A DNA stretch of 64,000 bases, taken from contig CAYJKV010000004.1 of assembly GCA_964371255.1 (NCBI GenBank), positions 39,613-103,612 of the forward strand, read 5' to 3'. The notes below the pieces were generated by a model. That model was given only the letters and a program-made list of their open reading frames with translations. It searched no databases and was not told the DNA's origin. How positions within the stretch are numbered: the first letter of the stretch is position 1; each line of letters opens with the position of its first letter. Positions 23,941-60,253 of the stretch are shown here, in pieces. Position numbers and translations under genes: made by a program. The stretch comes from an uncultured Candidatus Saccharibacteria bacterium. Lineage in GTDB: Bacteria > Patescibacteriota > Andersenbacteria > UBA10190.

Positions 23941-24091
23941 TAAGATGGTTAATAATTTTCAATTTTCAAAGCTCAATTCTCAAATAATTTTTAATGATTC
24001 AATCTATCAAACATTAGTAATTTTATCTTTGTCGTATATATTTGAAAATTATAGACTTGAATGCTTTATTGAAGATTGAAAATTGGTAATT
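23941..24091. repeat. AT-rich dispersed element of about 150 bp with terminal inverted 'aattttcaa / ttgaaaatt' motifs (copy A of 3)
   Basis: Roughly 80% identical to 25121..25285 over about 100 bp; 39088..39185 is a shorter third copy. It ends at the FemAB-like gene start. Confidence 0.7.
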
Positions 24092-25120: not shown

Positions 25121-25285
25121 ATTTTCATTTTTTCCCTAGAGGATCCCTTCAGGACAAAGCTCAATTTTTTATAAATGCCAATGATGCAATTATCGAACAT
25201 TGGTAATTTAAGTTTTGTCGTATATGTTTGAAATTTTTAGTTTGAATGTTTGTCTGCAGGTTGAAAATGGGTAATTGAAAATTAG
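25121..25285. repeat. AT-rich dispersed element, copy B
   Basis: See 23941..24091. It ends at the start of the Mur ligase ORF. Confidence 0.7.
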
Positions 25286-38769: not shown

Positions 38770-39099
38770 TTAGCGGGGCAAGTCCTGGTTTTGTAAAAGC
38801 GTTTCCAGGCTATCGTCAGGAGCCATTTTATTGCGGCGAACGAGGCCACAGACTTCACATTCTTGAATCAAATCTAGTTTGGTCGGGTCTGTTCCTTCAT
38901 ACGAAATGGTCGGCATCAGGCCATGACATGAAGCGGAGCGATCGCCGGGGACGCGGCCGTCAACATGTTTACTGGTCAGGCAATGGGGACAGTGGTTGCG
39001 AAATGTTTGGGGAGCAGGCGGGACGTTGGCATCGCACTTGGCGCAGATAAAGGGATCATTACGGGGGATGAAGTTGCGACGAGAATTTTCAATTTTCAT
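38770..39099 (-). CDS. RNHCP domain-containing protein
   Basis: FRNHCPHCLTSKHVD...ECEVCG is the RNHCP zinc-ribbon-like signature. Its first codons (MKIENS) are encoded by the AT-rich dispersed element. Confidence 0.7.
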   Translation of the reverse strand: MKIENSRRNFIPRNDPFICAKCDANVPPAPQTFRNHCPHCLTSKHVDGRVPGDRSASCHGLMPTISYEGTDPTKLDLIQECEVCGLVRRNKMAPDDSLETLLQNQDLPR

Positions 39100-39185
39100 T
39101 TTTCAATTTTCAAATAATTTCAAGCAGTCAATTTTCAACCTGACACTGTTTGCGAATTGAAAATTGGGTTTTGAAAATTGGTTAT
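39088..39185. repeat. AT-rich dispersed element, short copy C
   Basis: gaattttcaattttcatttttcaattttcaaataattt...ttgcgaattgaaaattgggttttgaaaattgg shares both termini with copies A and B. Confidence 0.6.
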
Positions 39186-39893: not shown

Positions 39894-39913
39894 AATAAAA
39901 AGCTTAGGCTTTT

Positions 39914-39945
39914 AAAATCCAAATGCCAAAATCCAAATGCCAAAC
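39914..39945. repeat. ccaaatgccaaa oligo repeat (aaaatccaaatgccaaaatccaaatgccaaac) in the ssb-rpsF intergenic region
   Basis: Direct read. It is followed by a second short tandem repeat, gaatttgaaatttgggctttgaaatttgacatttgg. Confidence 0.7.
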
Positions 39946-41143: not shown

Positions 41144-42226
41144 CTAGGAGGAGAATTTAAAAAACATAACATCGCCATCTTGGACGAGATAGGTTTTGCC
41201 TTCGTCGCGCACATGGCCGGCGCTGCGGGCAGCTGTGTGCGAACCGGTCTGAACAAGGTCGTCATAAGCGACAGTTTCTGCGCGAATAAATCCTTTCTCC
41301 ATGTCGGAATGGATTTGTCCGGCAGCCTCCGGGGCGAGGGCACCGCGTGGTACAGTCCAGGCTCTTGTTTCGGTGGGGCCAGAGGTGAAGAAAGTGATGA
41401 GGTGAAGAAGGGCATAGCCTGCTTGAACCAAGCGGTCCAGACCGGTATTGGTCAGACCATATTCCCGCAGGAAGATTATTCGTTCGTCATCGGGCAATTG
41501 CACCAGCTCCTGCTCAATCTTGACGGAGATGGGCAGGACGTGGTCGGTGTGGCTAAAGACGGCGGAGAACTCTTCGGGAGACAAAGATATTTGCTGGTCG
41601 CTAACGTTGGCGATGTATAGAACGGGCTTGCTGGTCAGGAGAGGAATAGTTTTATTGAGTTCAGTTTCTTCGGGAGTGAGAGGCAGGGTGCGAGCGGGCT
41701 GGTTGGCATTCAAATGTTCGGATATTTTAGCTAATAACACATCAAGTGCTTGGGCGGATTTATCGTTGCCCCTGATTTTTTTATCAAGGTTAGTGCGCAT
41801 TTTATCGACGACAGATAAATCGGCTAAGATAAGTTCAGTATTAATGATATCAACGTCGCGTTTGGGGTCGACAGTTTGTTCGACGTGGATGATAGTTGAG
41901 TTGTCAAAGAAACGAACGACATGAACGATGGCATCAACTTCCCGGATATTGGCCAGGAATTGATTACCTAATCCTTCGCCTTGGTGAGCGTTTTTAACCA
42001 AACCGGCAATGTCGACGAACTCTATGGTAGTGGGAGTAATTTTAGCTGACTTGGATAGCACTGATAATTTATTGAGACGTTCATCAGGTACGGCAACAAC
42101 ACCGACATTAGGAGTAATGGTGGTGAACGGGACGTTTTGCGCTTTGGCTGCCTGTTTGGTTAAAGCGTTAAAAAGAGTGGATTTACCCACGTTAGGCAGA
42201 CCAATGATCCCAAGAGAAAGTGGCAC
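41144..42226 (-). CDS. ychF: ribosome-binding ATPase YchF (Obg-like GTPase family)
   Basis: G1 GIIGLPNVGKSTLFNALT, a TGS/YchF C-terminal domain (…GALAPEAAGQIHSDMEKGFIRAETVAYDDL…), 360 aa. Confidence 0.9.
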   Translation of the reverse strand: MPLSLGIIGLPNVGKSTLFNALTKQAAKAQNVPFTTITPNVGVVAVPDERLNKLSVLSKSAKITPTTIEFVDIAGLVKNAHQGEGLGNQFLANIREVDAIVHVVRFFDNSTIIHVEQTVDPKRDVDIINTELILADLSVVDKMRTNLDKKIRGNDKSAQALDVLLAKISEHLNANQPARTLPLTPEETELNKTIPLLTSKPVLYIANVSDQQISLSPEEFSAVFSHTDHVLPISVKIEQELVQLPDDERIIFLREYGLTNTGLDRLVQAGYALLHLITFFTSGPTETRAWTVPRGALAPEAAGQIHSDMEKGFIRAETVAYDDLVQTGSHTAARSAGHVRDEGKTYLVQDGDVMFFKFSS

Positions 42227-42375
42227 AGGGGTTAATTTAGGCTATTAAGCGCGTATGTCATGGTTTTGACCTTACCATAATACAGTCTGTTTGGCAAGGT
42301 GACATAAAAGTGCTAAGATCGATTGTTAGTTTGTACTTTTCACCGAGACAAATAAACGTCTCACCGCATACAGGA

Positions 42376-43041
42376 GAATACCAAATGTCTACTACGGCCG
42401 TTTCCAATCGGGACAAGTTAGCTAAAGTTCTAGCCGGCTTGTCTGACATTCAGATTGACGCTGTTACACCATTGTTCGAAGACGTCGCCGAAGCGGCACG
42501 GACCGATAACTGTCTCAACCGTGTATCACGCGACAAGTTCAGGCGAGATCTTAACCTTAAACGCCTCCTCAACCCCACCATCACCGAGCTCGTCGGCATA
42601 GTTCTTGCTCCGAAGGACACACCTCTCGCCGACCGCATCAATGACGGCGATTACAAAGGCGGAGTCAACTCTGACATTACGGCCGAGTGTTTTCCAATCA
42701 CTCACGACGCCGGTCCTGTGCCCCTGGTACTCGCCGACTTTGGGTCCGAAGTAAGCAGTGAAGAGGTTGAACAATGGTGCCAGGCCGATGGTGGCTACGA
42801 AGTAGCCTATCCAGAAGATGGTTTGGCTGTCGGCGCTACTTCTCAGCACCAACACCTCCAGCTACAAAATCCCATTGTTGTGCTCGGAGGTCCTCCCGCG
42901 TTTCTGGGCGGTGCTCGTCGTGTGCTCTACTTCTTCGGGTGGGGTGACGGGCGTCGTCTGCACCTGCACTGCTACGGCAGCAGGTGGTACGGCTACTGTC
43001 GTTTTCTCCTCCGCAAGGTATCTAAGCCCTCGGGCTCTTGA
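42376..43041 (+). CDS. hypothetical protein (island-associated; possibly frameshifted at the 3-prime end)
   Basis: SD aggaga 7 nt before the ATG at 42376. The codon style differs from the backbone. An overlapping alternative frame is open at 42818..43171, so there may be a frameshift or pseudogene. Confidence 0.35.
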   Translation, partial: EYQMSTTAVSNRDKLAKVLAGLSDIQIDAVTPLFEDVAEAARTDNCLNRVSRDKFRRDLNLKRLLNPTITELVGIVLAPKDTPLADRINDGDYKGGVNSDITAECFPITHDAGPVPLVLADFGSEVSSEEVEQWCQADGGYEVAYPEDGLAVGATSQHQHLQLQNPIVVLGGPPAFLGGARRVLYFFGWGDGRRLHLHCYGSRWYGYCRFLLRKVSKPSGS

Positions 43042-43136: not shown

Positions 43137-43192
43137 TTATCCAGAATTGTATTAAGGTAAAAAATGGATAGTAGGTGTGTATTTTAAGCTAC

Positions 43193-43480
43193 GGGTTGCG
43201 CTTTAATAATTCTGCCCAAAGAATCACGCTGTAATATCACTCGCGCCTTTCTCGGTTTCGGAATTGGCAGTCTGAAGGTGGTTTCTAAAAGTCGAGTTGC
43301 GTAGTCATGATGCCGATTCTCAACATACGATCCCAACCTTTCGGTGGTTAACGGAATATGACCACATACGTCAACTTGTTTCTGTCCATATACAGTTATC
43401 TTATCAATCAGATCCCTTATAATGGCACGTTTGTTGCTAAAATCAAGTTTTTGAAGTAGGTATTGCGTTGTTAATTGTAG
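43193..43480 (-). pseudogene. C-terminal remnant of a large serine recombinase/integrase (no start codon)
   Basis: The minus-strand frame is open for about 95 codons without a Met: QKLDFSNKRAIIRDLIDKITVYGQKQVDVCGHIPLTTERLGS... This resembles the C-terminal (DUF4368-like) segment of large serine recombinases (…LIxKIxVYxDxIEI…). Stop codons lie on both sides. Confidence 0.35.
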
Positions 43481-43515: not shown

Positions 43516-44778
43516 ATGTATCTTCGTTCTACACTAACACTATTGTTTGTCAGTATAGTGGTTTTCGTATCACTACTACTCACAGCACCAGCTTTCGCCT
43601 ACTTGTTAATTGATAGTCACGGTACTGTTTCTAGATTGAGTACACAAGTGTTAGGTGATAGCGACTCTAGCGGTAGTGGGAGTGGCGGCGATGATCAGGG
43701 TGAGGGTGAGACTGGAGAAGACGACGAAGATAATAGCGGTGAGAGTGAAAAGACAGCCGAAGAAGAACAACAAGAGGCAGCCAAGAAAGAGGCCGAGCGA
43801 GTTCGCGAGACTACTAAAGAATCGGAGACTGAAAGCAGTACAGGCGTCAAAACAAAATTAAAGCGAGAAGATGATGGTCGAATGAAGACAGAGGTTAGGT
43901 TACAGGACGGTACGAGGATAAAAACAGAAACCCGTGCTGGCGGAGCGCGTACGGATGTATACAACGGCACGACTAAAATTCGTTTTGAGCGCGAAGGTGA
44001 CCGATTTCGCATCAAAGCGGAAAATGAATTGGGACAAGAAATTGAACTGGAAGAGCGTGAAGGTGATGATCTAGATACCGAAGAAGACAATGAAGCTGAA
44101 CTTAAAGGCACTTTAGTTAAAGTTGATAACGTCTTTCAACTGACTTCCAGCGGTGTAACGTACATTCTTCTACCTACTGAAGGTTTGGTTCTTGATAGCC
44201 TTGTTGGCCAATTTGTAGAAGTTGAGGGCATCCCAACTGCTGAATCACCTACGACGCTAACTATTACCAAGGCCAAACTTGAAAATACTGACGAGACTGA
44301 AGATGAAATTGTAGTTGAAGGGCGAGCTGATCTGTTAAAGATTCGTGCCCTCCAAAACAAAGCTATTATCGAGCGTCTTAATGTTCAGGCACTAACTGAT
44401 CTGCCGCTCTCGGTTGATCTGACCACTAATATATTGACTGTTACTACTCCTGCTGGTGAAAAACAGGTTACGGTTCTGCCTGATCAGGCCGTACAAAATA
44501 TGTTAGCGGCCAATGCCATTGATCGCTTAGGCGGGGAAGCACTTGTTGAAGAAGTGCGTCAAGGAAATATTCAAACCCTCGGCCAGGTGGTTGAACTAGG
44601 GCTGCGCAACAATGTGCCTGTTTACCAGGTTCAAGGTATTAAGAATCATCGCTTCTTAGGATTCTTTCCTGTGACGACTGACGTTACAGTAACGGTTTCG
44701 GCTGAGACTGGCGAGATTGTGGATACGAACCAGTCGCTCGGAGCTACTATACTTGATTTCTTCTCGATTTCGGCGTAA
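43516..44778 (+). CDS. secreted or membrane-anchored protein with a highly acidic Gly/Asp/Glu-rich region (hypothetical)
   Basis: N-terminal TM or signal (LTLLFVSIVVFVSLLLTAPAFAYLL), then GSGSGGDDQGEGETGEDDEDNSGESEKTAEEEQQEAAKKEAER..., 420 aa. Confidence 0.55.
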   Translation: MYLRSTLTLLFVSIVVFVSLLLTAPAFAYLLIDSHGTVSRLSTQVLGDSDSSGSGSGGDDQGEGETGEDDEDNSGESEKTAEEEQQEAAKKEAERVRETTKESETESSTGVKTKLKREDDGRMKTEVRLQDGTRIKTETRAGGARTDVYNGTTKIRFEREGDRFRIKAENELGQEIELEEREGDDLDTEEDNEAELKGTLVKVDNVFQLTSSGVTYILLPTEGLVLDSLVGQFVEVEGIPTAESPTTLTITKAKLENTDETEDEIVVEGRADLLKIRALQNKAIIERLNVQALTDLPLSVDLTTNILTVTTPAGEKQVTVLPDQAVQNMLAANAIDRLGGEALVEEVRQGNIQTLGQVVELGLRNNVPVYQVQGIKNHRFLGFFPVTTDVTVTVSAETGEIVDTNQSLGATILDFFSISA

Positions 44779-44874
44779 GCAGCTCTGCGTGCCCATACAT
44801 TTGGACCAAGAAAACTACAGTAGACTGCACGGCTTTACACATTTATTATTGGAGCCTTGGAGCGGACAATGCGG

Positions 44875-44990
44875 CCTAGCTTGTCCCGTTGGGCTATAAG
44901 CTGCTCTTTTCGGGGCTTAGGGCAATCGAATGCCAAGCGGAATTGCATCGGTTCAAAGGTTGGGGTGGTAACGCTCCGATCCCGACTCTC
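44875..44990. repeat. structured repeat element of about 115 nt, copy 1 (5-prime module agcttgtcccgttgggctataagc...cgggg; 3-prime module ggggtggtaacgctccgatcccgactctc)
   Basis: Shares conserved 5-prime and 3-prime modules with 49402..49537; the centre is variable. A partial 5-prime module is at 54264..54296. Confidence 0.65.
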
Positions 44991-45068
44991 AACATATAAC
45001 CGTATTTTACTTATTTAAACTAATCATGTAAAGTTTAATTATAGAATATCATAATTAAAGTTACAATA

Positions 45069-46205
45069 GTGGCAAAAAAACAACAGTTCCAAGCGGGGTA
45101 TTTTCGGCAGCAGGAGGGGTATAAGAGCTTCTTTCCGGCCAAGCTAGACTCCACTTATCGGTGGGCTGATTCTGATATTGATGGTTTATTGGAAGAAGCA
45201 ACTCGTTACTTGGGTGAACTTAACGCTTACTCGCGTCTTGTCCCCGATGTCGATTTTTTTATTGGCATGCATATTTTTAAAGAAGCGATCACGTCTAGTC
45301 GAATTGAAGGTACTAAAACGGCTCTTGACGAAGCGCTTTTACCTGAGGAAGAAGTTAATCCTGAGCGTCGGGACGATTGGACTGAAGTACGAAATTATAT
45401 AAGGGCAATGAATTACGCTATTAATCAATTAGATACGCTACCACTTTCGATGCGTTTAATGAGGGGGGCTCATGCTATCTTATTATCTGGAGTGCGGGGT
45501 GAACATAGAAACCCAGGAGAGGTGCGCAAGAGTCAGAATTGGATTGGAGGATCTAGCTTGAGGGACGCTATTTTTATTCCTCCGCCCGATACTCAAGTGC
45601 CAGAGCTCTTAGCTGGCTTGGAGCGTTTCTTGCATGACAAAAATAGTAAACTACCTAGACTGATAAAAATTGCTATTGGTCATTACCAGTTTGAAACAAT
45701 TCATCCTTTTCTGGATGGTAATGGCCGTATCGGCCGTTTGATGATTACCCTATATCTTGTATCAGAGGGCGTGCTTAGTAGGCCGACTCTCTACTTGTCT
45801 GACTTTTTCGAAAAGCATAAGGGCTCGTACTATGATGCCTTAACAATGGTACGGACTTCCCATAATCTTGATCAGTGGATTAAGTTTTTTTTGGCGGGAG
45901 TCGCTCAGACGGCACGCTCGGGGGCGGTGACATTCGAGGGTATTATCTCATTGCGTCAACGTGCAGAGCAAGGAATTATGACTTTGGGTAAGCGTTCAAA
46001 AACTGGCCAAGCTCTTTTGGAGAAGCTGTTTTCTCAACCAATCGTTAATACAAAACAGGTGGTTGATTTTCTTAATATTTCACCTCCTTCTGCAAATTCA
46101 TTGGTGGCGGCATTCGTTGATCTGGGAATATTACGGGAGGTGACAGGTTATAAACGCAATCGCTTGTTTGAGTTTACTGAATACGTAAAGCTGTTTGAAA
46201 AGTAG
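45069..46205 (+). CDS. Fic family protein (AMPylator/adenylyltransferase; class II with N-terminal inhibitory motif; C-terminal winged helix)
   Basis: Fic core [20 protein letters not shown] (HxFx(D/E)GNGRxxR). Inhibitory motif TSSRIEGT ([ST]xxxE[GN]) upstream of the core. 378 aa. GTG start. Confidence 0.9.
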
Positions 46206-46493
46206 TCTTCATAGACTGATCGAGCTGATCTGTATCAAGCTTTTCAAAAAAGCGCATCAATATCTGAATGCTGGCGGCCTTCCAGCTGTGCTGTTGTTGT
46301 ACGGAGTGAGCAGGTTGTGAGGAGGGGCGGGTAAATAACTTTAGCTGGACAGTCATTACAAAAGTAGCAGATACGTATATGAGCGAAGTCGGCTTTGAAC
46401 GGCAATTATTCCGATCGCTTGCTTGGTTTGTTTTAGCTTAATAAAGCAATATTAGGGACAAGCAGGAGCGTATACTACCTTAGTATTTGATTA

Positions 46494-46522
46494 TTGACAT
46501 GTATGTTGTCTAACGATAATAT
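46494..46522 (+). promoter_or_regulatory. consensus sigma70-type promoter (TTGACA, 17 nt spacer, TAATAT) upstream of the 46607 gene
   Basis: ttgacatgtatgttgtctaacgataatat: perfect -35 hexamer, 17-nt spacer and a 5/6 match at -10. Confidence 0.6.
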
Positions 46523-46606
46523 CGGTTAACTGTTCTCTAGGGTACGTGCTGGTATTGTAGACACGTTGTCTGCCCCTGCACCGCCCGTTAATCGAGGAGC
46601 CATAAT

Positions 46607-47269
46607 ATGGCTACAGCATTCGGACGAGCTAAGAAGGTTATGGAGCAATTGGAACGGCTAAGTGATCAGCAAGCTGACGATCTTATCGACGGCGGCTACA
46701 TCGCGGCCGTGCGAGAAGCCAAACAGTCAGGAACTTTGCCTGACGAAGAGGTGTTTCGTCAGTTTCTTGGCCTAGACAAACGTTTGCGAGGGATGGCAAC
46801 TGTTGATCTCTCCGCTCGGGCAGAGCCGTTCGCAGCAGCCGACTACTTCAAGAATCGCGCTGGTCTGTATATTTGGGATGGGTTCAAGAGCCGAGTGTCG
46901 TCAGTTGCTGGCACGGTAACAACCACACCGGCAACCAAATCTTCCAGCTTCGACCTTAAGAAAAGCAGCGCCGATCAACGGATCCGCGTCGAATTGCCGG
47001 AAGACCATGTATTCCCTGATGCCAGTGTTTTTTGCTCATATCTGGCCGGCATGATCGACCGTCAACCAAACGGTAAAGAAGGAGCTTTGCTGAATAACGG
47101 CCTCGCCAACATTTTCTATGTCAATGTTGATGACCGGGTCGTTGCCGTCTACGTCGGCTGGAATGCTGGTGACCAGTGGTGGGGCGTCGATGCCTGCGGG
47201 TTGGACGTCGATGTCTTCTCGGCGGGTAGCCGTGTTTTCTCTGCGACTGCTGTCGCTAAGGCACTTTGA
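46607..47269 (+). CDS. hypothetical protein (island-associated, downstream of Fic)
   Basis: 220 aa ORF with a strong upstream promoter and a downstream terminator. No recognisable family. GC-richer codon style. Confidence 0.55.
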   Translation: MATAFGRAKKVMEQLERLSDQQADDLIDGGYIAAVREAKQSGTLPDEEVFRQFLGLDKRLRGMATVDLSARAEPFAAADYFKNRAGLYIWDGFKSRVSSVAGTVTTTPATKSSSFDLKKSSADQRIRVELPEDHVFPDASVFCSYLAGMIDRQPNGKEGALLNNGLANIFYVNVDDRVVAVYVGWNAGDQWWGVDACGLDVDVFSAGSRVFSATAVAKAL

Positions 47270-47290
47270 TCTTTTGCTCTTAGACCCTTT

Positions 47291-47339
47291 GCCTCTTTGA
47301 TTCTTTGCGTCACCGCATCGAACCAAAGAGGCTTTTTTG
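47291..47339 (+). terminator. rho-independent terminator (gcctctttg...caaagaggc followed by tttttt)
   Basis: 9-bp perfect stem around a roughly 24-nt loop, followed by T6. Confidence 0.55.
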
Positions 47340-47780
47340 TTACACTGACTTCCGGAGCTCTTGATACTGCTTCGGTTACGGTTTGAGCAAGGAGTTTTGG
47401 ACGATCTGATCGCCAGAGTTCCGTCGGTCATGGCTTGGGCAAGCGTGATCCAGTATGAATTTACCTGACACCTTCACGACTTCTTCGCAGAGTAAATCAA
47501 GTTAGACTTTATTAAGCTTGGTTCTAATGGTAATCACTGCAGTAACCGCAAAACATAACCAAGCGTAATATACAGTGTTTTCAACGCTTGGCGGCACTAT
47601 GTTATTGTCGTCCAGGCTAATCATAGATACCGGCAAAGACAAGTCCGAGCGAGAACGGGAGAAGCCATTTTTTTGCTTGAGCAGGGATTTCGCCTACGTC
47701 GCAACATCAAGATATGATATTATTTTTTTAACATCTCGATACAAATAGTGACTCTTGAAATTTTTTTAAGCGACGGTGCA

Positions 47781-49403
47781 ATGAAACAGTGGTTTGGGGT
47801 CGTTCTTCTGTTGGTTGTATGTGTAGGGATGGGGCATCCCTTGTCAGCATACGCGGCGACTTTGCTTTCTAATATCAGTCAGAGCAATGATAAGGGCACG
47901 AGTATTTTTCGTAGTAACATTTGGGTGGCCTATCGTTTGACCGCTGGTTCACCTGCGACTATTGATAGCGTTACGTTGAATCTAGACCCTACCGCCGGAA
48001 ACTATACCGGCTTCTCTACATATACTTCAGGAGTAATCCGATTTTACAACGATAATTCTGGCGTAGTCGGCAGTGCAATTCCAGGCACTTTAGCGTATAC
48101 ATCAACTAATTCGGGAACCGGGCATACCGTCTATGCGAACGCCAGCGGCACTATTACAATTCCGAGCGCTGGAAATTACTGGATTGCGCTGACATGTTCA
48201 GCTTGTGCAAATATTGATTACCGTGAATCCAGTTCGGCAAGTTATTCGGGTGCTACCGACTGGCAGACAATTATTGGCAGCGCTTCCATATCCACGAGCA
48301 ATAATAAGGGCAGCAGTTGGGGAACACCATATTCTTCTTCTACCTATGGGGCCGTGATGATGACTATCGCCGGAACAGAAACTGATAACACGGCGCCAAC
48401 AGCTTCTACTCTTGCGCCAGCCGATGACGCGACTGGAGTGGCTCTGGATACCAATCTGGTGATTACTTTTGATGAGGCAGTTGACGCCGAATCTGGTAAC
48501 TTCACGATAAAGATGTCTGCTAATGATTCAACTGTTGAAACAATTGATGTGACGAGTGACAAAGTAACAGGCTCAGGTTCAACTGAAATTACTATTGACC
48601 CAGCGACAACGTTAACGGGCAGTACAGACTATTATGTGAACATCGATGCCACAGCATTTGATGATGCAGCTGGGAATAGCTATGCAGGCATGAACAGTGC
48701 AACAGCATGGAATTTTACAACGGTGGTTGTGCCGACACCAGCGCCGTCGACTTCTGAAAACACCGAGCAAAATACTGTTACCAACAAGACATTTGTGAAT
48801 GTGATCACAGAAGGTAACGATGAAGGAGGGCCGATTCCATTAAAACCAGTTATCACGTCAGATAATCAGGTAATACACAGCAAAGAAACCAATACAACAC
48901 AACAGCAAGAAGTAAAAGAGGGCTCGAACACGGCGATCACATCAAAGATCCCTGATGCTGATCAGGTGCAACAAGTGTATGTGAAAATTGCCGGAAAAAA
49001 GGTTCCTTTGAAAGTGAAAGATGACACATTCACATTTACGATAACATTAGGGTCTGATTTACCCCCGGGGCGGCATCCATATATATTGACGGCTGATTAT
49101 GGAATTTTTGCACTGCGACAACAAGGAGAGTTAATCGTGAATGCGCCGGAGCAGCCAACTCCTGCTGAATTGATTGCTCAGCAGGGGGATATTTTTAGCA
49201 AAGTATTTGATCGTAATGCTTCCAGTGAAGAAGGGCAGTATTGGACGAAGCGAATTTTAGCGGGAGAAAAGAAGACAGCACCGGAGCTCTATGGTGCAAT
49301 GCAATGGCAGCGTATTCACCGGGCGATTGCTGTTGTTCCTGCGGTGGCTGGTATGTTTACTAGCTCAGCAATGACGACTTGGCTATCACCAGTTACTGAC
49401 TAA
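47781..49403 (+). CDS. secreted Ser/Thr-rich protein with a bacterial Ig-like (Big_5/SbsA-type) domain; putative adhesin or surface protein
   Basis: Signal peptide MKQWFGVVLLLVVCVGMGHPLSAYA. The segment PADDATGVALDTNLVITFDEAVDAESGNFTI...IDPATTLTGSTDYYVNIDATAFDDAAGNSYAG matches the SbsA-type Ig-like domain pattern (P.D.atgV...i.i.F.e.v......f........DaAGN). Confidence 0.7.
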   Translation: MKQWFGVVLLLVVCVGMGHPLSAYAATLLSNISQSNDKGTSIFRSNIWVAYRLTAGSPATIDSVTLNLDPTAGNYTGFSTYTSGVIRFYNDNSGVVGSAIPGTLAYTSTNSGTGHTVYANASGTITIPSAGNYWIALTCSACANIDYRESSSASYSGATDWQTIIGSASISTSNNKGSSWGTPYSSSTYGAVMMTIAGTETDNTAPTASTLAPADDATGVALDTNLVITFDEAVDAESGNFTIKMSANDSTVETIDVTSDKVTGSGSTEITIDPATTLTGSTDYYVNIDATAFDDAAGNSYAGMNSATAWNFTTVVVPTPAPSTSENTEQNTVTNKTFVNVITEGNDEGGPIPLKPVITSDNQVIHSKETNTTQQQEVKEGSNTAITSKIPDADQVQQVYVKIAGKKVPLKVKDDTFTFTITLGSDLPPGRHPYILTADYGIFALRQQGELIVNAPEQPTPAELIAQQGDIFSKVFDRNASSEEGQYWTKRILAGEKKTAPELYGAMQWQRIHRAIAVVPAVAGMFTSSAMTTWLSPVTD

Positions 49404-49537
49404 GCTTGTCTCGTTTGGCTATAACCCGATATTTACGGGGCTTGGGAGGCCAAAACGTAAAAGCAAAAGGAAGTGATTCAAACCCTTCGACGCAGCTACA
49501 GGGTAAAGGTCGGGGTGGTAACGCTGTGATCCCAATC
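49402..49537. repeat. structured repeat element, copy 2; it begins at the adhesin stop codon
   Basis: taagcttgtctcgtttggctataaccc...cgggg...ggtcggggtggtaacgctgtgatcccaatc. The same modules as copy 1, in the same orientation. Confidence 0.65.
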
Positions 49538-49627
49538 TTTTATGACCTGTAAAATTAGTAGCTCATTTCTTTATTTTTTTTTCAGTGGTTGGGGTATTGA
49601 TGATTGACGACGGATCGCCCAGGAGAA

Positions 49628-51061
49628 CTAAAGAGTGGTCAAATGGATGGAATACTCGTCCGGTTTATTGGGCTTGATTTGGCTGGCGACAATCATGATG
49701 GGATCTCCTTGGTAAAGATGGTACTGGCGCAGTAAGAGTTGTTTGGTGCTGGCGGTAAGATTAATGGTTGAGTGTCTAGATAAAACAGGAGTAATTCCCC
49801 AACTTAAGAGCAGTTGCTGGTAAGTTGCGGTGGAAGCGGCGAGCGCCAGGATGGGCAAGTGAGGCCGCAAGCGAGAAAACGCGCGAGCAAAATAACCAGA
49901 TTGGGTGCTGACAATAATCGCTTTGGCATTCAGCATACGAGCGAGAGCGACGACGTTCTCGGCAATAGCCAACGGGGAGGTGGAAGGAAGTTTGGCCGGC
50001 AAGGGTTGGGTGAGCAAAGCGGAGGCTTCGGTCGAGATGATAATATCATTCATCATCCGGACAGCCCGAACGGGAAATTTGCCCATGGCGGTTTCTCCGG
50101 AAAGCATGACGGCATCGGTGTGATCGAAGACGGCGTTCGCCACATCGGAAACTTCGGCCCGCGTGGGACGCGGATTAAATTGCATCGTGCCAAGCATCTC
50201 AGTGGCGGTGATCACGGGCTTACCGGCATTCAGGCATTTATGAATAATGCCTTTTTGATGGAGGGGGACTTGAGCGATTGGTGTTTCCAGGCCTAAGTCG
50301 CCCCGGGCAATCATGACGGCGTCTGCTTCGGCGAGAATGGCATCGAAATGTTCCAAAGCTTCAGGCTTTTCGATTTTAACTATTACCTGCGGAGGCGGCA
50401 TATAGGCAGGCAGGTAGCGTTTAATTTTTTGTTTTAATTTAATAACATCGTTAGCGCTGCGGACAAAAGACAGAGCGACAAAATCAATGCCTTGTTGCAG
50501 ACCGAAACGCAGATCTGCTTCGTCCTTGGTAGTTAGCGGTTTTTCGACCAGTGAGAGGTGAGGAATATTAATCCCTTTGTGGGACAGCAGGGTACCGCCC
50601 AAAAGAACCCGGGCCTGGATGTGGCTGCCGCGACGGCGTATGACCTGCAACTCTTTAGTACCGTCATCGAGGAGAATTAAATCATTAATTTCCACCGCAG
50701 ATTTTAATTCGCGATAGGGAACGGGGATAGTGCCAGATGGGCTGGTAGTGGCACCGGCAACGAGGGTGACGATGGATCCTTCACGCAGTTCCAGGCCGGC
50801 TGCCGGCAACTCTCCGATTCTAATTTTCGGCCCCTGTAAGTCTAACAGCAGGGCGACGGGGAGGCTGGCTTGCCGGGAGGCGCGACGGACCTTTTGCAGC
50901 AAGGCTCGGTTACTGTCATGGGTGCCGTGGGAAAAATTGAAGCGAGCCACATTCATGCCGGCCTTGATCATGTCGCGCAGAATGTCTGACGATGAACTAG
51001 CGGGACCGATAGTACAGACAATCTTGGTGCGTTTATGCTGAGTGATTAATGATGCGGGCAT
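49628..51061 (-). CDS. pyk: pyruvate kinase
   Basis: KRTKIVCTIGPASSSSDILRDMIKAGMNVARFNFSHGTHD, ...MIARGDLGLE..., 477 aa. Confidence 0.9.
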   Translation of the reverse strand: MPASLITQHKRTKIVCTIGPASSSSDILRDMIKAGMNVARFNFSHGTHDSNRALLQKVRRASRQASLPVALLLDLQGPKIRIGELPAAGLELREGSIVTLVAGATTSPSGTIPVPYRELKSAVEINDLILLDDGTKELQVIRRRGSHIQARVLLGGTLLSHKGINIPHLSLVEKPLTTKDEADLRFGLQQGIDFVALSFVRSANDVIKLKQKIKRYLPAYMPPPQVIVKIEKPEALEHFDAILAEADAVMIARGDLGLETPIAQVPLHQKGIIHKCLNAGKPVITATEMLGTMQFNPRPTRAEVSDVANAVFDHTDAVMLSGETAMGKFPVRAVRMMNDIIISTEASALLTQPLPAKLPSTSPLAIAENVVALARMLNAKAIIVSTQSGYFARAFSRLRPHLPILALAASTATYQQLLLSWGITPVLSRHSTINLTASTKQLLLRQYHLYQGDPIMIVASQIKPNKPDEYSIHLTTL

Positions 51062-54263: not shown

Positions 54264-54296
54264 GGCTATAAGCGGTACGCTCGGGGTAATTTTTTA
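54264..54296. repeat. partial copy of the 5-prime module of the 44.9/49.4 kb repeat element (ggctataagcggtacgctcggggtaatttttt), 3-prime of eno
   Basis: ggctataagc-N-cgggg matches copies 1 and 2. It is followed by a T-run. Confidence 0.4.
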
Positions 54297-54454: not shown

Positions 54455-54712
54455 ATGTCAAAGAAGTGGTGTGTATACATCGTTAGATGCAAGGACAAAA
54501 CTTTGTATACGGGATATACCAATGATTTAGAAAAGAGAGAATTATCACACAATAAGGGAATAGGGGCGAGGTATACCAGACAGAGGCGGCCGGTTCAGGT
54601 CATATATGTTGAGGAGTTTAGTAGTAAAGGAAAAGCTTTGAGTCGGGAATATGAAATAAAACAGATGACGAGAGAGGAAAAGGAAGAGTTAATCAGACGA
54701 AGCAACAGTTAA
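54455..54712 (+). CDS. GIY-YIG nuclease family protein (small UPF0213-type)
   Basis: WCVYIVRCKDKTLYTGYTNDLEKRELSHNKG...QVIYVEEF is the GIY-YIG signature. 85 aa. Confidence 0.8.
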   Translation: MSKKWCVYIVRCKDKTLYTGYTNDLEKRELSHNKGIGARYTRQRRPVQVIYVEEFSSKGKALSREYEIKQMTREEKEELIRRSNS

Positions 54713-54761
54713 TGACAGGGCAGGGTTTGACTTGGCCGGCAGTAAATAATAGCTTGGATAC

Positions 54762-54965
54762 ATGAATGGACAGAGAAGGGAAGATATTTATGCCGGGCTG
54801 ACAGTAGACATTGTCTTGAAACAAGACCAGCGAACAGGAAAGCTGACGCGTGGGGTTGTGCAGGATATTCTGACTAGCTCTTCATTTCACAGCCGAGGAA
54901 TCAAAGTGCGTCTGATAACCGGGGAGGTTGGCCGCGTGCAGAATATTTTGAGTGATAACGATTAA
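54762..54965 (+). CDS. YwbE/DUF2196 family small protein
   Basis: ...GLTVDIVLKQDQRTGKLTRGVVQDILT...HSRGIKVRLITGEVGRVQNI closely matches the conserved YwbE pattern. 67 aa. Confidence 0.6.
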   Translation: MNGQRREDIYAGLTVDIVLKQDQRTGKLTRGVVQDILTSSSFHSRGIKVRLITGEVGRVQNILSDND

Positions 54966-55040: not shown

Positions 55041-56930
55041 TTGTTTGTAACTAACACTATAATGAAATCACTATTTAGGTCGCAGTTAACATACAAAATC
55101 CTAAAATTTCTTAGCAGGAACCAGAAGTCGCACTATTTGGCGGAAATAGCCAGGAGCATTCAGTCCGATCCGGGTAACACCACAAAAGAATTAAAACGTT
55201 TAACTGAAGAGGGGTATTTGGTTCAGAGCGAAGAAAATGGCCGAAAATATTATGCATTAAGCGTTGACCTGCCGCATTTTAGTAAACTTGTCGGTTTATT
55301 AGAAAATGAGGCTGATCAAGAGTTCCAAAAATACTTTAGTATAGAGTGGATGCTGGGAGAGGACATTCCTAACATGACCCCATTTTTTAGCATGATCTGG
55401 CTAAATTGTTTTGTAGACGAGTTTGCCCAGCCAGGTGGCAAAGCTTATCGCAAGATTGCAGGAATCTACAAAGATTATCACTTATGGTTTTATTTCGAGA
55501 AAGAGAGTGCTAAGGAGGTCGCCAGCCACATTGTCAATCGTTTTGCGGCTGACCCTGACTTCATGACGCAAATCAACAAAGAGATTGTGGCTCATTCAGA
55601 TAAACTGCGTTCCTATTCCGAGACTATTCCGGAGACTGGATTGGAAAAGCTGTCGGCAAAGCAATTGTGGCAGATATTCAAACAGCATGAAGATATACAT
55701 ACAGCTTATTATCAGTGGGGATGGCTGCCGGTGGCGGCAGATATGTTTACTGATGAGTTGACGGAGAAAGGTAAAGTGGTTTTGCGCGAACACGGGGCTG
55801 GAGAAGATGAAGTGAATGAATATTTGGTGGTACTTACCCAACCGACCAAACCGTCGCTGATGAAACAAGAAGCTGATGAGCTTATTGATATCGCCTTGGA
55901 CGTGCAAAAGGACGAAAAACAAGCCGCTTTATTTTACGAGCTAATGCGGAAGTTCAAAGAGGACGAGGTTAAGGAGTTTGGGCTGTATACCCACAGCCCA
56001 CAATACGAAAAGGCTTTAGAAGAAAAGGTGCGGGAATTGATTAGTGAAATACCGCAAGATATATTGCAACGTTTACAAGAGCATCAGGCTAAGTATTTTT
56101 ACACTAGATTTCTTTTTACAGAGGAACAAGGCGTTTACAGTTTTGAGCATTATCTGAAGGGGTTGGTGCGTTTAGTTTGCCGAGGCGACGAGTTGCGACT
56201 AGAAAGAGAAAAGAGCAAATGGGAAATTAAAGTAGCTGAAAAAAAGAAAAAAGAGGTTAGTAGAACAATGCACCTTGAGTCCAAATGGATCACTTTCTTT
56301 GAAGAGTGGGGTGGCTTTATGGTGACGAAGATTTACCGCCGATATGCCCAGTTGTTTGCGCTGTCTAAAATGAGCGCTGTATTGGAAGAAATTGGCCGAC
56401 GACTAAGCTTACCGCAAAAGGAAGTTAGTTTTATGACCAGCGAAGAGATTGAAGCTGCTTTGCTTGGCAAGGCAATAGATAAAGATGTGATTAAGGCGCG
56501 GGTGCCGTTTTCTGTCTACTATGCTGATAAGGATACGCATAAGTTTTACATTGGCAGCGAAGCTAAACGTGCCGCAAAGCTTATTCAGAAAGAAGTGATT
56601 GAACAGGTTAATGAATTTACGGGGCAATGTGGCTGTCAGGGTTATGCTAAAGGCAAGGTTAAAATAGTTAATGTGGTGGCAGATATGAGTAAAGTAGTGC
56701 CGGGAGATATTTTGGTTTCCATATCAACACAGCCTGATCTATTACCGGCTATGAAAAAGGCAGCGGCATTTGTGACGGAACAAGGGGGGGTGACATCTCA
56801 TGCTGCGATTGTGGCGCGGGAGATGAATAAACCGTGTGTGATTGGCACAAAGATAGCAACCAAAGTTTTGAAAGATGGTATGGAAGTTGAAGTGGACGCA
56901 ACAAGGGGAAGGGTGACACTATTACAGTGA
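55041..56930 (+). CDS. winged-helix (ArsR/MarR-like) DNA-binding domain, a large middle domain and a C-terminal PEP-utilizer mobile (swivel phosphohistidine) domain
   Basis: N-terminus LTYKILKFLSRNQKSHYLAEIARSIQSDPGNTTKELKRLTEEGYLVQSEENGRKYYAL (wHTH). C-terminus ...GGVTSHAAIVAREMNKPCVIGT (PEP-utilizers His motif). 629 aa. It is the first gene of a five-gene coupled operon. Confidence 0.7.
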   Translation: MFVTNTIMKSLFRSQLTYKILKFLSRNQKSHYLAEIARSIQSDPGNTTKELKRLTEEGYLVQSEENGRKYYALSVDLPHFSKLVGLLENEADQEFQKYFSIEWMLGEDIPNMTPFFSMIWLNCFVDEFAQPGGKAYRKIAGIYKDYHLWFYFEKESAKEVASHIVNRFAADPDFMTQINKEIVAHSDKLRSYSETIPETGLEKLSAKQLWQIFKQHEDIHTAYYQWGWLPVAADMFTDELTEKGKVVLREHGAGEDEVNEYLVVLTQPTKPSLMKQEADELIDIALDVQKDEKQAALFYELMRKFKEDEVKEFGLYTHSPQYEKALEEKVRELISEIPQDILQRLQEHQAKYFYTRFLFTEEQGVYSFEHYLKGLVRLVCRGDELRLEREKSKWEIKVAEKKKKEVSRTMHLESKWITFFEEWGGFMVTKIYRRYAQLFALSKMSAVLEEIGRRLSLPQKEVSFMTSEEIEAALLGKAIDKDVIKARVPFSVYYADKDTHKFYIGSEAKRAAKLIQKEVIEQVNEFTGQCGCQGYAKGKVKIVNVVADMSKVVPGDILVSISTQPDLLPAMKKAAAFVTEQGGVTSHAAIVAREMNKPCVIGTKIATKVLKDGMEVEVDATRGRVTLLQ

Positions 56931-57877
56931 TGACCTACACCAAGACTTTCTCGGAAATATCAAAAAGCGATACGGCCATAGCCGGTGGCAAAGGGGCGTC
57001 ACTGGGCGAAATGACGCAAGCAGGCATTCAAGTGCCGCCTGGATTTGTGATTCTGGCACCCGCTTTTGATGAGTTTCTGAAAATTACTGACCTAAACGTG
57101 GAGCTGGATGCCATTTTGGACCAAGTGAACCATGAGGTAATGCACGAGGTGGATGACGCGTCAGAAAAGATTAAAGCCCTGATTTTGGGTAAAGAAATAC
57201 CGGCAAGTATGGCCAAGGAAATTATTTCTGCTTTCGATGAGTTAGACGCGGAATTCGTGGCTGTTCGTTCCAGTGCCACTTCTGAAGACTCCGCGGCGGC
57301 AGCGTGGGCGGGACAATTAGATACTTATCTCAATACGACCGAAGAAAATTTACTGGCCAATGTTAAAAAATGCTGGGCTTCGCTCTTTACGCCGCGGGCC
57401 ATTTTCTATCGTTTTGAAAAGGGATTACATGGGACACCAATTTCGGTCGCTGTCGTAGTCCAAAAAATGATCCAATCTGAAGTTTCAGGTATCGCTTTTT
57501 CGGTTCATCCTGTCACGCAAGATTACGACCAGCTAATTATTGAAGCTGGCTTCGGGTTGGGGGAGGCGATTGTCTCCGGCTCAGTTACACCAGACAGCTA
57601 TGTGATCGAAAAAAGCAGTTGGAAGTTACTCGATAAAAATATAACTACTCAAGAGCGGGGATTATTTCGTAAGGACGAAGGCGGCAATGATTGGCAAGAT
57701 ATTCCAACCACGAAAGGTGAGCAGCCGACGCTAACTGATGATGAAGTTATAGGCCTGGCAAAACTCATAGTTAAAATTGAGAGGCACTATGGTTTTCCCG
57801 TTGATGTTGAATGGGCACGAGAGAAGAATAGCTTTTATATCGTTCAAAGCCGTCCGATTACGACTCTGAATAAATAA
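56927..57877 (+). CDS. stand-alone PEP synthase/PPDK N-terminal ATP-grasp nucleotide-binding domain protein (PPDK_N)
   Basis: GGKGASLGEM...GIQVPPGFVI..., VAVRSSATSEDSAAAAWAGQLDTYLN and VVVQKMIQSEVSGIAFSVHP match the PEP synthase/rifampin phosphotransferase ATP-grasp domain. 316 aa, with no swivel or PEP-binding domain. ATGA overlap with the upstream gene. Confidence 0.8.
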   Translation: MMTYTKTFSEISKSDTAIAGGKGASLGEMTQAGIQVPPGFVILAPAFDEFLKITDLNVELDAILDQVNHEVMHEVDDASEKIKALILGKEIPASMAKEIISAFDELDAEFVAVRSSATSEDSAAAAWAGQLDTYLNTTEENLLANVKKCWASLFTPRAIFYRFEKGLHGTPISVAVVVQKMIQSEVSGIAFSVHPVTQDYDQLIIEAGFGLGEAIVSGSVTPDSYVIEKSSWKLLDKNITTQERGLFRKDEGGNDWQDIPTTKGEQPTLTDDEVIGLAKLIVKIERHYGFPVDVEWAREKNSFYIVQSRPITTLNK

Positions 57878-57890
57878 CGAAGAGAAAGTT

Positions 57891-59189
57891 ATGGCAGATA
57901 ACAAATGGCATTATCTTGGCAGATGGATTGAACCGGTATTGTCATGTGGTCTATGGTTGGAATGGAAAAACTTAACGGATGATATAGGACTTCATTTTAA
58001 AGGAGATATCGCCGTTTTGGATGGCTATCAGTATATTCTTAACGAAGATGTTAAAACAGCCAGTAAATTTTTGAATGACACAATCGTAAATAGCCCAGAA
58101 TGGTTTAATGTTTTTTTCAGACTTTGTGACGAGAAAATAGAGAAAGTATTATCGTTTAAGAATAAGAACGACCTGAGCGGCTTATTGATCGCTGCCACTA
58201 ATTCCTTGGGGCTAGTTACTATTCTGATAATGTTTGATATTGGGTATCAGAAATACATCAAAAAGATAGCGAAAAGACAAAACTTTGACGAAGAAGAATT
58301 TTTCTCTTTGGTCAAGCCGCATCGAAATACTTTGTTAATGGACTATATTCAGGAACTTAAGCAGCTGGATAAAAACAGTGAAGAGGCAAAAGAAAACTTT
58401 ATCAAGAAATATGGTTGGGTAGGAAAACATGTATTTCTGGGTGATGGTTTAACGCGTGAAAAGCTGGAACAGGAGCTGATTGATATTCCCAAACAAAAAA
58501 GTGCAAAAACCAAAGAAAGTATTAAGAAGTTGCCAAAAAAGTTGGCTGACCTATTGTCCCTTGGAAACAAGTTCGCTTTTTACCGCTCTTATATAGTTGA
58601 GTGCACCAATAGTGTCGTCTATGAGTACTGCCCAATTGTTAAAGAACTTGGCGAAAAGCGTGGCTTAATTTGGGATGATGTTTTACTTTTAGATTATCAG
58701 GAGGTTATTGACTTAAATGAGAAAAATGAAAAGCCTCACAATTTCGAGAAAAGGAGAAATGGCTACGGGAAAATAATAAAAGACGGCAAGAAAGTTATTG
58801 TCACGGGTGCCAGTTTAGAGAAGGAATTGAACAGGTTTCGGGAAAAAGTTGATAAAGATGTAAAAGAGATAAAAGGAATGGTTGCCTCTAAGGGGGGTAT
58901 CATTATAGGCATTGTGAGGGTTGTAGAGGAGTCGGCAATAATTTCCAAAATGAAGGAGGGTGATATCTTGGTGGCTAACGAGACTACTCCAGATTACGTT
59001 GTGGGCATGAAAATTGCTGGGGCTATTATAACCAATCAAGGAGGTATAACTTCTCACGCCGCAATTACCAGCAGGGAAATGGGTATTCCTTGTATAATCG
59101 GGACGAAAATCGCCACCCAAATTCTCAAAGACGGAGATTTGGTGGAAGTGGATGCAGAGAAGGGGATTGTGAGGAAGATTAATGGCTGA
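57891..59189 (+). CDS. PEP-utilizer mobile (swivel) domain protein with a unique N-terminal domain (paralog 2)
   Basis: C-terminus ...GDILVANETTPDYVVGMKIAGAIITNQGGITSHAAITSREMGIPCIIGTKIATQILKDGDLVEVDAEKGIVRKI. The roughly 320 aa N-terminal region is unrelated to known domains. Confidence 0.75.
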   Translation: MADNKWHYLGRWIEPVLSCGLWLEWKNLTDDIGLHFKGDIAVLDGYQYILNEDVKTASKFLNDTIVNSPEWFNVFFRLCDEKIEKVLSFKNKNDLSGLLIAATNSLGLVTILIMFDIGYQKYIKKIAKRQNFDEEEFFSLVKPHRNTLLMDYIQELKQLDKNSEEAKENFIKKYGWVGKHVFLGDGLTREKLEQELIDIPKQKSAKTKESIKKLPKKLADLLSLGNKFAFYRSYIVECTNSVVYEYCPIVKELGEKRGLIWDDVLLLDYQEVIDLNEKNEKPHNFEKRRNGYGKIIKDGKKVIVTGASLEKELNRFREKVDKDVKEIKGMVASKGGIIIGIVRVVEESAIISKMKEGDILVANETTPDYVVGMKIAGAIITNQGGITSHAAITSREMGIPCIIGTKIATQILKDGDLVEVDAEKGIVRKING

Positions 59190-59200
59190 CAAAGAAGGTT

Positions 59201-60253
59201 ATGGATATTAATAGTTTTGAGAGATCAGACTGGAATCAAATATGGGCAGGCGATTGGAGTTTGCTCTCCTGTTCGCAATTTGGCGAGCAGTACACGAAAA
59301 CTCTTATCGTCAATGGTAAAGTGTTTATGTCCCAAACTGTTCTTATGATTGAGGATGGTAAGAGCGCTGGCTTTATGACGCAGGCTGACAAAGACGCCTT
59401 TGGTAAGCATTTAGCCCAGGAGGTTGTTGATAATCCCAGCCGTGTCCAAGAAATTGCGGCTAATTTTAAACGACAGGTTGATTTGACGATGGAGTTGATG
59501 AATAAGTATAAAACCAGTGAAATCACCAAAGAAATTTACGAAGCTTTCTGGGAGCGCATACTGGAATACTACAAACCGCATGTGAATGTTAAGTATATTG
59601 TTGATTATCTTGATCCAGAACTGTTGAAAAAATATTTACCGGAGCTGGAAGAAGCACGGGTGTACGCTGAGCCTGTTTTCAAGCACTCGGAAGAATTTAT
59701 GCAGGCTATGGCGCAGCAACAAGGGGCTAAAATTGGTTATCCCACTGAACTAATATTGTGCTTGTTGATAGAAGAACTGCCATCGCTATGGAAGAGCGAA
59801 GCATTGCCAGCACAAGTAGTATTGCGACAGAGATATGATAGAAGTGCGTTGTTAGTTGATCTGTCTGATCAGTTGCTTTGCGTTGGTGATGAGGTGAGCG
59901 AGATTGATCAGTTTATCCATGGAGCGACGGAAGATGAAGTAATCAAAGGAGCAACAGCGTACCCAGGGCACGCGAAAGGAACCGTGCGAATTATCTTTGA
60001 TCCGACTAAAGCTGATCATTTTCAGAATGGCGACATTTTAGTAACTCACATGACGCGGCCGGAATACTTACTGATTATGAAAAAGGCTGCGGCTATCGTG
60101 ACTGAGGCTGGCGGCATATTGTCGCATGCGGCCATCACGTCACGCGAATTAAAAAAGCCGTGTGTGATAGGGACGAATAAGGCTACCAAGATATTGAAAG
60201 ATGGAGACCTGGTTGAGGTAGATGCGGATAAAGGGATTGTGAGGAAAATATGA
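59201..60253 (+). CDS. PEP-utilizer mobile (swivel) domain protein with a unique N-terminal domain (paralog 3)
   Basis: C-terminus ...GDILVTHMTRPEYLLIMKKAAAIVTEAGGILSHAAITSRELKKPCVIGTNKATKILKDGDLVEVDADKGIVRKI. Confidence 0.75.
   Translation: MDINSFERSDWNQIWAGDWSLLSCSQFGEQYTKTLIVNGKVFMSQTVLMIEDGKSAGFMTQADKDAFGKHLAQEVVDNPSRVQEIAANFKRQVDLTMELMNKYKTSEITKEIYEAFWERILEYYKPHVNVKYIVDYLDPELLKKYLPELEEARVYAEPVFKHSEEFMQAMAQQQGAKIGYPTELILCLLIEELPSLWKSEALPAQVVLRQRYDRSALLVDLSDQLLCVGDEVSEIDQFIHGATEDEVIKGATAYPGHAKGTVRIIFDPTKADHFQNGDILVTHMTRPEYLLIMKKAAAIVTEAGGILSHAAITSRELKKPCVIGTNKATKILKDGDLVEVDADKGIVRKI

Follow-up and report, generated by a model that had tools for sequence, protein, structure and literature searches.

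The gene ychF is an integration site of pipolins that encode a large serine recombinase (LSR) (PMC11551731), and a pneumococcal prophage with a tyrosine integrase has been described immediately upstream of ychF (PMC8637289). Recombinases whose att site lies inside their own open reading frame are known as the "suicidal" integrases of archaeal SSV-type elements (PMC8371274, PMC7253208), and a review has described recombinases with a site in their own gene as confined to the archaea (PMC8371274). The SSV-type enzymes are tyrosine recombinases that use tRNA targets, and integration splits the integrase gene into two non-functional halves. In the Myxococcus phage Mx8, attP lies within the 3' end of intP, and integration changes the C-terminus of the integrase (intP to intX).

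We analysed a 64-kb stretch of bacterial DNA (the whole of which we call the window), for which a preliminary description had reported two copies of a bipartite repeat and had suggested that they might be recombination or attachment sites, a structured RNA, or a REP-like repeat. We conclude that the repeats are very probably junction relics of integrative elements that were inserted by an LSR into codons 5-7 of ychF. The attachment-site suggestion was thus sound in substance, as the copies look like attL-type relics of LSR elements and a 37-codon LSR remnant is fused to one of them. It had overlooked that the repeats code on the opposite strand, for the 3' end of a recombinase, that there is a third copy, and that the ychF target is 1 kb away.

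Repeat copies in the window and their coding strand

Both copies first described (44875..44990 and 49402..49537) are present at those places and share one orientation. The 14-mer GGGGTGGTAACGCT occurs exactly twice in the 64 kb, with no occurrence outside these copies, and with up to 2 mismatches it has 3 matches vs 0.25 expected in the window; the 3' module of the repeat is a 29-nt pair of 90% identity in a direct-repeat search. We used an nhmmer profile of the window copies and their relatives to delimit the copies, which places c1 at 44858-44997 and c2 at 49390-49547, slightly wider than before. The same search of the window yielded an additional copy, c0, at 43196-43328, more diverged and in the same orientation (E 3e-9, scored before c0 joined the model), bringing the total to three rather than two. 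A partial 5' module that had been noted near eno at 54264 was not recovered by nhmmer at E<=10, and for this reason we treat it as a chance resemblance. What had been called a variable centre is homologous but diverged sequence, plus a 25-nt insertion in c2, which is a small inverted repeat (ACCCT..AGGGT). The placement of the copies just downstream of genes for secreted proteins was correctly reported: c1 begins about 80 nt past the stop of the gene for a signal-peptide protein, and c2 overlaps the stop codon of the gene for a Big_5 protein.

On the minus strand the copies show the marks of coding sequence. When seven of them are translated as the reverse complement, the products form a clean protein alignment free of stops (for example, ENRHHDYATRLLETTFRLPIPKPRKARVILQRDSLGRIIKAQ in c0 against TDRDRSVTTPTFELIPFTFTFWPPKPRKARVIVQRDQRGRIVHSQP in L008a), and on that strand the 5' module consists of codons for PKPRK..I.QRDKLG and the 3' module of codons for SRDRSVTTPTFE. 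We call the encoded segment the tail. Across 12 copies, entropy at the three codon positions is 1.10/0.87/1.46 and pN/pS is 0.53, with 2 stops in the tail frame (both natural ends) vs 17-47 in the other five frames; the synonymous swaps in the codon alignment include Arg AGA<->CGN and other multi-step changes. For 98 distinct metagenome tails, which were gathered with a protein profile that favours open-frame copies, the entropies are 0.94/0.63/1.51 and there are 18 stops in frame vs 177-440 in the other frames. An alternative plus-strand open reading frame (..GWGGNAPIP..) was rejected, since its frames contain stops, including an in-frame TAG in L011a, and the changes are mostly non-synonymous; in a peptide search with this frame the query's own ORF was the only match.

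Several other identities were considered and set aside. An integron attC was rejected because the two modules are not complementary to each other and the associated recombinase is a serine recombinase. A T-box-like reading of GGGTGGTAACGC and readings as a MITE, a DGR or an IS200/IS605 end were dropped from the sequence, as the anatomy did not fit. No terminal inverted repeats were visible when both copies were read by eye; the automated repeat search covered direct repeats.

In the orientation of ychF, the order of features in the window is pyk / c2 / Big_5, 220-aa unknown, Fic / c1 / PepSY-like / LSR remnant and c0 / 243-aa ORF / ychF (Table 1), with the Big_5, 220-aa unknown and Fic genes on the strand opposite to ychF. 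GC skew is 0.02-0.14 across 42-49.5 kb vs 0.15-0.32 in the flanks. Apart from the 37-codon remnant beside c0, no LSR body was found elsewhere in the window, and the window sequence just upstream of ychF is not recognisably LSR-derived.

Table 1. Features of the ychF-proximal array, with positions in the window and the evidence used to place them
Feature	Position	Strand	Basis
ychF (GTPase), proposed integration target	41144..42226	-	Pfam YchF-GTPase_C and MMR_HSR1
Core-like CTTGGGATC in ychF codons 5-7	42206..42214	-	sequence
243-aa ORF between ychF and c0, no Pfam match	42310..43041	+	
c0, intact 50-codon tail (L/M)GSYVENRHHDYATRLLETTFRLPIPKPRKARVILQRDSLGRIIKAQPVA*	43184..43336	-	nhmmer, ORF, HMM E 4e-21
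c0 core ATCGGCATC	43309..43317	-	junctions aligned on core
LSR body remnant, 37 codons, ..KLDFSNKRAIIRDLIDKITVYGQKQVDVCGHIPLTTER, in frame with c0	43337..43450	-	tblastn, translation, alignment
420-aa signal-peptide protein, weak PepSY match, putative cargo between c0 and c1	43516..44778	+	
c1 (first copy described), putative attL-type junction and P' arm	44835..45005	-	protein HMM E 2e-22, translation, codon alignment
c1 core GTCGGGATC, where tail homology begins	44978..44986	-	junctions aligned on core
Putative displaced ychF start stub of c1, ATG TTG AGA GTC GGG ATC (MLRVGI)	44978..44995	-	
Putative cargo between c1 and c2	45069..49403	+	domain search
Fic/DOC protein	45069-46205	+	
220-aa unknown	46607-47269	+	
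Big_5 surface protein	47748-49403	+	
c2 (second copy described), decayed tail	49400..49547	-	partial HMM match 49402-49476, E 4e-9
25-nt insertion only in c2, aaacccttcgacgcagctacagggt	49480..49504	+	alignments
c2 core ATTGGGATC	49528..49536	-	junctions aligned on core
Pyruvate kinase (pyk), host gene at far edge of array	49628..51061	-	domain search

Other repeats and variable segments were seen in the window. Downstream of eno (54455-54965), strains of the same organism differ (L001 11629-11838 vs L002 11453-11963): one strain has a 69-aa GIY-YIG ORF, while the other, like the window, has an 85-aa GIY-YIG ORF and a 67-aa DUF2196 ORF, this small segment being polymorphic and possibly mobile. 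At 55041-61353, paralogous PEP-utilizer/PPDK_N genes share a 92-nt repeat at their 3' ends with 61-84% identity; this gene cluster is also found beside the ychF hotspot in L014 and L022. In the direct-repeat search, the AT-rich intergenic motifs ATTGAAAATTGGTAATTGAAAATT, AATTTTCAATTTTCA.. and AATGCCAAAATCCAAATGCCAAAC recur about 14-15 kb apart (23954-25284, 25815-25874, 39084-39179 and 39908-39945). A 52-nt repeat of 81% identity (4042-4093 and 21742-21793), with an internal inverted repeat AACACCGGGTGTT..AACACCCGGTGTT, looks terminator-like or site-like.

Tails, large serine recombinases and the start of ychF

The tail has a consensus of about 50 residues, ..TTPTFE..F.F..PKPRK.RIIV.RD.LGRIVHSKPP. 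Its profile matched 250 cluster representatives at E<=1e-3 in an exhaustive database, most of them 45-90 aa, and 10 relatives in a word-indexed database. Against Pfam, NCBIfam, PHROGs, PADLOC and the PDB the tail has no match save a 14-residue chance match to a LeuRS hairpin, in which tail residues 36-49 (IVERDKLGRIVHSK) nearly equal residues 612-625 of E. coli LeuRS (IVERDEKGRIVKAK; E 0.03, probably a coincidence). An AF2 model is confident only for a C-terminal beta-hairpin, residues 32-48. The hosts are uncultured bacteria, many from the 0.1-um fraction of groundwater, and are probably Patescibacteria/CPR.

Homology connects these tails to LSRs. In proteins P0082, P0154, P0098, P0019, P0036 and P0104 the tail stands in frame at the extreme end of LSR C-terminal parts, and the long tail proteins show a zinc-ribbon region, a coiled coil and ..VIKDIIDKVIIKER..VEV.GHIPL..; the length of the LSR remnant varies (302 aa for P0082, 145 aa for P0036). 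In P0157, P0158, P0160 and P0162, which are full-length LSRs (527-528 aa; Resolvase, Recombinase and Zn_ribbon_recom domains), the shared sequence extends to ..NIQYEPKRRD, and the protein stops 3-12 unrelated residues later. In c0, L021, L022 and L027 the LSR frame crosses the junction core (described below) and enters the tail with no intervening stop, and it is likewise continuous in P0019, P0036, P0098 and P0154. The tail is fused in frame to an LSR C-terminus in eight independent sequences, and the LSR frame at the ychF junction is in phase with the tail frame at the far junction. The continuous LSR-core-tail arrangement would represent the attP state. No full-length LSR (at least 500 aa) continuing into a tail was found among these sequences, all fusions being N-terminally truncated and at most 302 aa, and a search of IMG/VR for tails gave no viral or circular contig with one. 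An exact-pattern scan of one genome per GTDB species returned two true relatives (L008 and L011, each with a second, diverged tail copy nearby) and three chance matches; the same kind of scan gave one chance coding match only in viral contigs and, with the strict 3' module, none in JGI metagenomes.

Junctions aligned across several genomes define a 9-bp core, RTNGGGATY, at which the homology breaks off sharply. To the right of the core, tails share sequence with one another, and to the left of it the arms are unrelated; LSR-ychF junctions have the same core, after which the sequence runs on into ychF. All four combinations of arms are found around the core: host-core-tail, LSR-core-ychF, LSR-core-tail and native ychF. 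In a crude, ungapped dyad test around the core, symmetric matching reached at best 12-15 of 26 positions, which did not exceed the level in shuffled sequences. The core is the presumptive crossover site, as judged from the alignments.

On one side of the core, LSR genes overlap the start of ychF in L019, L020, L043 and L067, and the core region of intact LSR genes supplies the YchF start, M-x-L-S-V-G-I. The overlapping bases, G ATG AAC CTA AGC GTC GGG ATT GTG GGG TTG CC, read ..DEPKRRDCGVA* in the LSR frame and MNLSVGIVGLP, the YchF N-terminus, one frame over; it is because of this overlap that full-length LSRs end shortly past YEPKRRD. Such overlaps appear to be P-core-host junctions (attR-type). 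On the other side, the pattern M-x(1-5)-[VIL]-G-[IVLT] occurs at the 5' edge of the tail, in the +1 frame, in 65 of 127 tails, the other two frames giving 0 and 3. The stub in these 65 tails is YchF-like (M-N/S-L-S-V/I-G-T/I), and TATAAT-like boxes often lie 8-12 nt upstream of it. By their sequence and position these stubs seem to be displaced 5' ends of ychF, so that isolated tails would be host-core-P' junctions (attL-type).

The window copies can be read against this pattern. The window ychF begins GTG CCA CTT TCT CTT GGG ATC ATT GGT CTG CCT AAC (VPLSLGIIGLPNVGKS). On the minus strand, c1 encodes an LSR tail (..YVESRDRSVTTPTFEPMQFRLAFDCPKPRKEQLIAQRDKLGRIVRSKAPIINV*), and its core bases translate as YVESRDRSVTTP in the tail frame and, shifted by one frame, as MLRVGIGALPP; the stub is one frame off the tail frame, ORF 44894..44995(-) reads MLRVGIGALPP.., and a TAAAAT -10-like box stands 9 nt upstream of the stub. 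We regard the c1 core as the likely crossover region. The tail of c2 is frameshifted by the 25-nt insertion, has a premature stop after ..WDHSVTTPTFTL and has lost its C-terminal codons where the Big_5 gene ends, and TTGGGATCA is common to the c2 core and the present 5' end of ychF. At c0, residues 45-132 of P0019 match window positions 43447-43196 by tblastn (E 8e-19). The LSR remnant together with c0 is best read as a P-core-P' (attP-like) junction, such as would be expected within an array of tandem elements.

The position of tails relative to ychF is consistent across genomes. Scanning the JGI metagenomes with the profile detected 120 tails at 80 loci. In all 25 of the loci with ychF, this gene is downstream of the tails and on the same strand, 592-7102 nt past the last tail, and the 40 tails found in addition to the seed tails all share the strand of their seed; the longest row holds five tails in succession. 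Tails are likewise upstream of ychF and co-oriented with it in the window, L011, L014, L016, L019 and L022. Among the 36 JGI loci with at least 3 kb past the last tail, ychF was present in 22 and none was seen in 14. Loci lacking ychF may represent larger elements, or a recombinase subfamily with another target; in L033, L034, L041, L071 and L102 the tail is at about 10 kb and the 10 kb that follow it contain no ychF. L014 comes from a relative of the window organism; there, an LSR remnant directly adjoins ychF, with two tails upstream. In L019 and L020 rpsF and ssb follow ychF, as in the window (ssb, rpsF and ychF at 39.4-42.2 kb). At loci with an intact LSR, the distance from the LSR start back to the nearest upstream tail, which has the same orientation, is about 5.2-5.5 kb (L043 and L067), 6 kb (L019) or about 8.6 kb (L096).

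No conserved gene was found between the last tail and ychF. The L019 element encodes a repressor-like HTH protein, a small terminase subunit, a large primase-like protein, an HTH_17 protein and the LSR. Intact ychF-integrated elements (L019 3768-11587; L020 1-4522) are only about 7-8 kb, and the L019/L020 set of small terminase, primase (Prim-Pol in L020), DUF5659, HTH_17 and repressor-like HTH proteins recalls phage satellites, not full prophages. Cargo beside tails is often defence-like (L013 1-9967; L021 6458-10961; L017 956-3648; L018 1-5980), including type I R-M, an Eco57I-like methylase, a TIR response regulator, SNF2/PIF1 helicases and DUF4325; adjoining DUF4325 is an unannotated ORF without a Pfam match, of 106 aa in L013 and 273 aa in L021.

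Proposed integration mechanism and alternative explanations

We propose that an intact integrated element would carry its LSR gene at the ychF-proximal end, reading into ychF, with the last LSR codons (..YEPKRRD..) giving, one frame over, the YchF start codon and first residues (M-N-L-S-V-G-I). The element would in this way restore the ychF gene that it interrupts. The gene's original promoter and start codon, along with its opening five or six codons, would be pushed to the far end of the element, where the displaced ychF end would be joined at the 9-bp core to the P' arm, which would be the "bipartite element" of the preliminary description. Once the element is excised and circular, the LSR reading frame would extend past the core and include the tail of about 50 residues, and on integration 3-12 unrelated residues would take the place of this tail. 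The attP site thus seems to lie inside the LSR reading frame, and integration would therefore swap the C-terminus of the recombinase; the excised element would presumably express an LSR-plus-tail protein. If elements entered one after another at the ychF start that each insertion regenerates, and later lost their recombinase genes, the outcome would be arrays of the form tail - cargo - tail - cargo - ychF, and the arrays presumably arose in this way.

Applied to the window, the array appears to consist of three decayed LSR elements accreted at ychF, with their recombinases lost. The cargo, which would now be fixed in the chromosome, comprises the Fic protein, the Big_5 surface protein, the PepSY-like secreted protein and two unknowns, one of which, the 243-aa ORF, is presumed to be cargo of the element nearest ychF. 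If the repeats are LSR-insertion junctions that encode the recombinase end, it follows that the window holds three decayed, captured islands and not an RNA or REP element.

It could be argued instead that the repeats belong to a free-standing gene family of about 50 aa (for instance a directionality factor, an antitoxin or a regulator) whose members are simply often located close to ychF, in which case the two modules would be the conserved N- and C-terminal codons. The open 50-codon ORF of c0 with its TTG start, the many homologues called as proteins of 40-90 aa, several with ATG starts (MGYE.., MLKYTH..), the conservation of the frame at the protein level and the confident AF2 beta-hairpin at residues 32-48 all fit such a family. 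The apparent starts, however, fall on the junction core and on the Leu codon of the LGYE motif of the LSR, the latter being the TTG of c0; c1 lacks a start codon where the family normally has one, c2 is broken, 17 of 98 tails have in-frame stops, and the displaced ychF ATG is in a different frame. Given also the eight independent in-frame fusions to an LSR C-terminus and the lack of a conserved partner gene, we consider a free-standing gene unlikely. That deletions left the copies behind as random 3' ends of serine recombinase genes, with no relation to a recombination site, is very unlikely: the window does lack an intact LSR, c0 does keep 37 extra LSR codons, and LSR remnants of various lengths exist, as in P0082 and P0036, but deletions would predict scattered end points, whereas independent tails from different genomes lose homology at one 9-bp core, a ychF start stub lies exactly at the core in half of the tails, and intact LSRs beside ychF end just past that same core.

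A plus-strand structured RNA, 3'-UTR element or REP-like repeat, as offered in the preliminary description, is in our estimation improbable in the extreme. The copies do follow plus-strand genes in one orientation, and a single GNRA-capped hairpin can be drawn in the 3' module; in L016, however, the neighbours are all co-oriented with the tail ORFs, so lying in sense to the upstream gene is not a rule. No Rfam family matched in the window at the gathering threshold, with nothing relevant at E<=10 around c1, and a tRNA/tmRNA scan of the window was likewise negative. Folding z-scores for the plus strand were -1.52 and +0.36, no better than shuffles, and a covariation check by RNAalifold on six copies gave a consensus of -6.8 kcal/mol with a covariation term of -0.11 kcal/mol. 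Substitutions track the codon periodicity of the opposite strand. The copies are also tied to ychF rather than dispersed as a REP-like repeat would be: in the window there are only 3 in 64 kb, all within 7.4 kb of ychF, and on related contigs the tails are just upstream of ychF wherever that gene is within the sequence.

Comparison with known systems

If the repeats are junction relics as we propose, they can now be read as a record of three past integrations, which would explain why genes for Fic, surface and secreted proteins lie between ychF and glycolysis genes in this organism. The unannotated module of about 50 residues (250 clusters, without a Pfam entry) could also serve as a marker for islands and their borders in uncultured, probably CPR, genomes.

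We found no description of an attP site inside the frame of a serine recombinase in the literature searched, and relative to that literature an attP within an LSR reading frame, with exchange of the C-terminus, would appear to be new. If true, serine recombinases would have their first example of this arrangement, bacteria would have an equivalent of the archaeal "suicidal" integrases, and the statement that recombinases with a site in their own gene are restricted to archaea (PMC8371274) would need to be qualified. The form of the recombinase would then be coupled to the integration state. We suggest, more tentatively, that with attP inside the LSR gene the excised form makes an LSR of about 580 aa with a beta-hairpin tail and the integrated form a tail-less one, the tail acting as a state-dependent switch of recombination direction or activity; we hold this to be possible rather than probable. 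Such a switch could replace or complement a separate directionality factor, and serine integrases are widely used as genome-engineering tools.

Like the described elements that target ychF, those discussed here have the recombinase gene at the element end beside ychF, use a hotspot at the 5' side of ychF, and carry island cargo between directly repeated junction sequences. They differ in that the junction is within ychF codons 5-7, with the YchF start re-supplied in a frame that overlaps the last codons of the recombinase, in that some 150 nt of conserved coding sequence stand at the far junction, and in that relics form arrays of up to five. The resemblance to tandem island accretion at tRNA genes is that the target end is regenerated and a displaced copy is left at the far side, giving direct-repeat arrays that separate cargo, although here the regenerated part is the 5' end of a protein gene (a start codon and about six codons), provided by an alternative frame of the recombinase gene, rather than a tRNA 3' end. 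With the SSV-type systems they would share a site within the reading frame of the recombinase, the transfer of a portion of the gene to the element's opposite end on integration, and the accumulation of captured, non-excisable elements flanked by gene fragments. Unlike those systems, the ychF elements use a serine recombinase in bacteria and would exchange only the last 50 or so codons, leaving the recognised LSR domains in one piece. Mx8 is closer in being bacterial and in changing only the C-terminal coding end of its recombinase gene on integration, but its IntP belongs to the tyrosine recombinases and targets a site other than ychF. The ychF elements would thus work like the SSV- and Mx8-type arrangements without being members of either, because of their serine chemistry and because only about 50 C-terminal codons would be exchanged.
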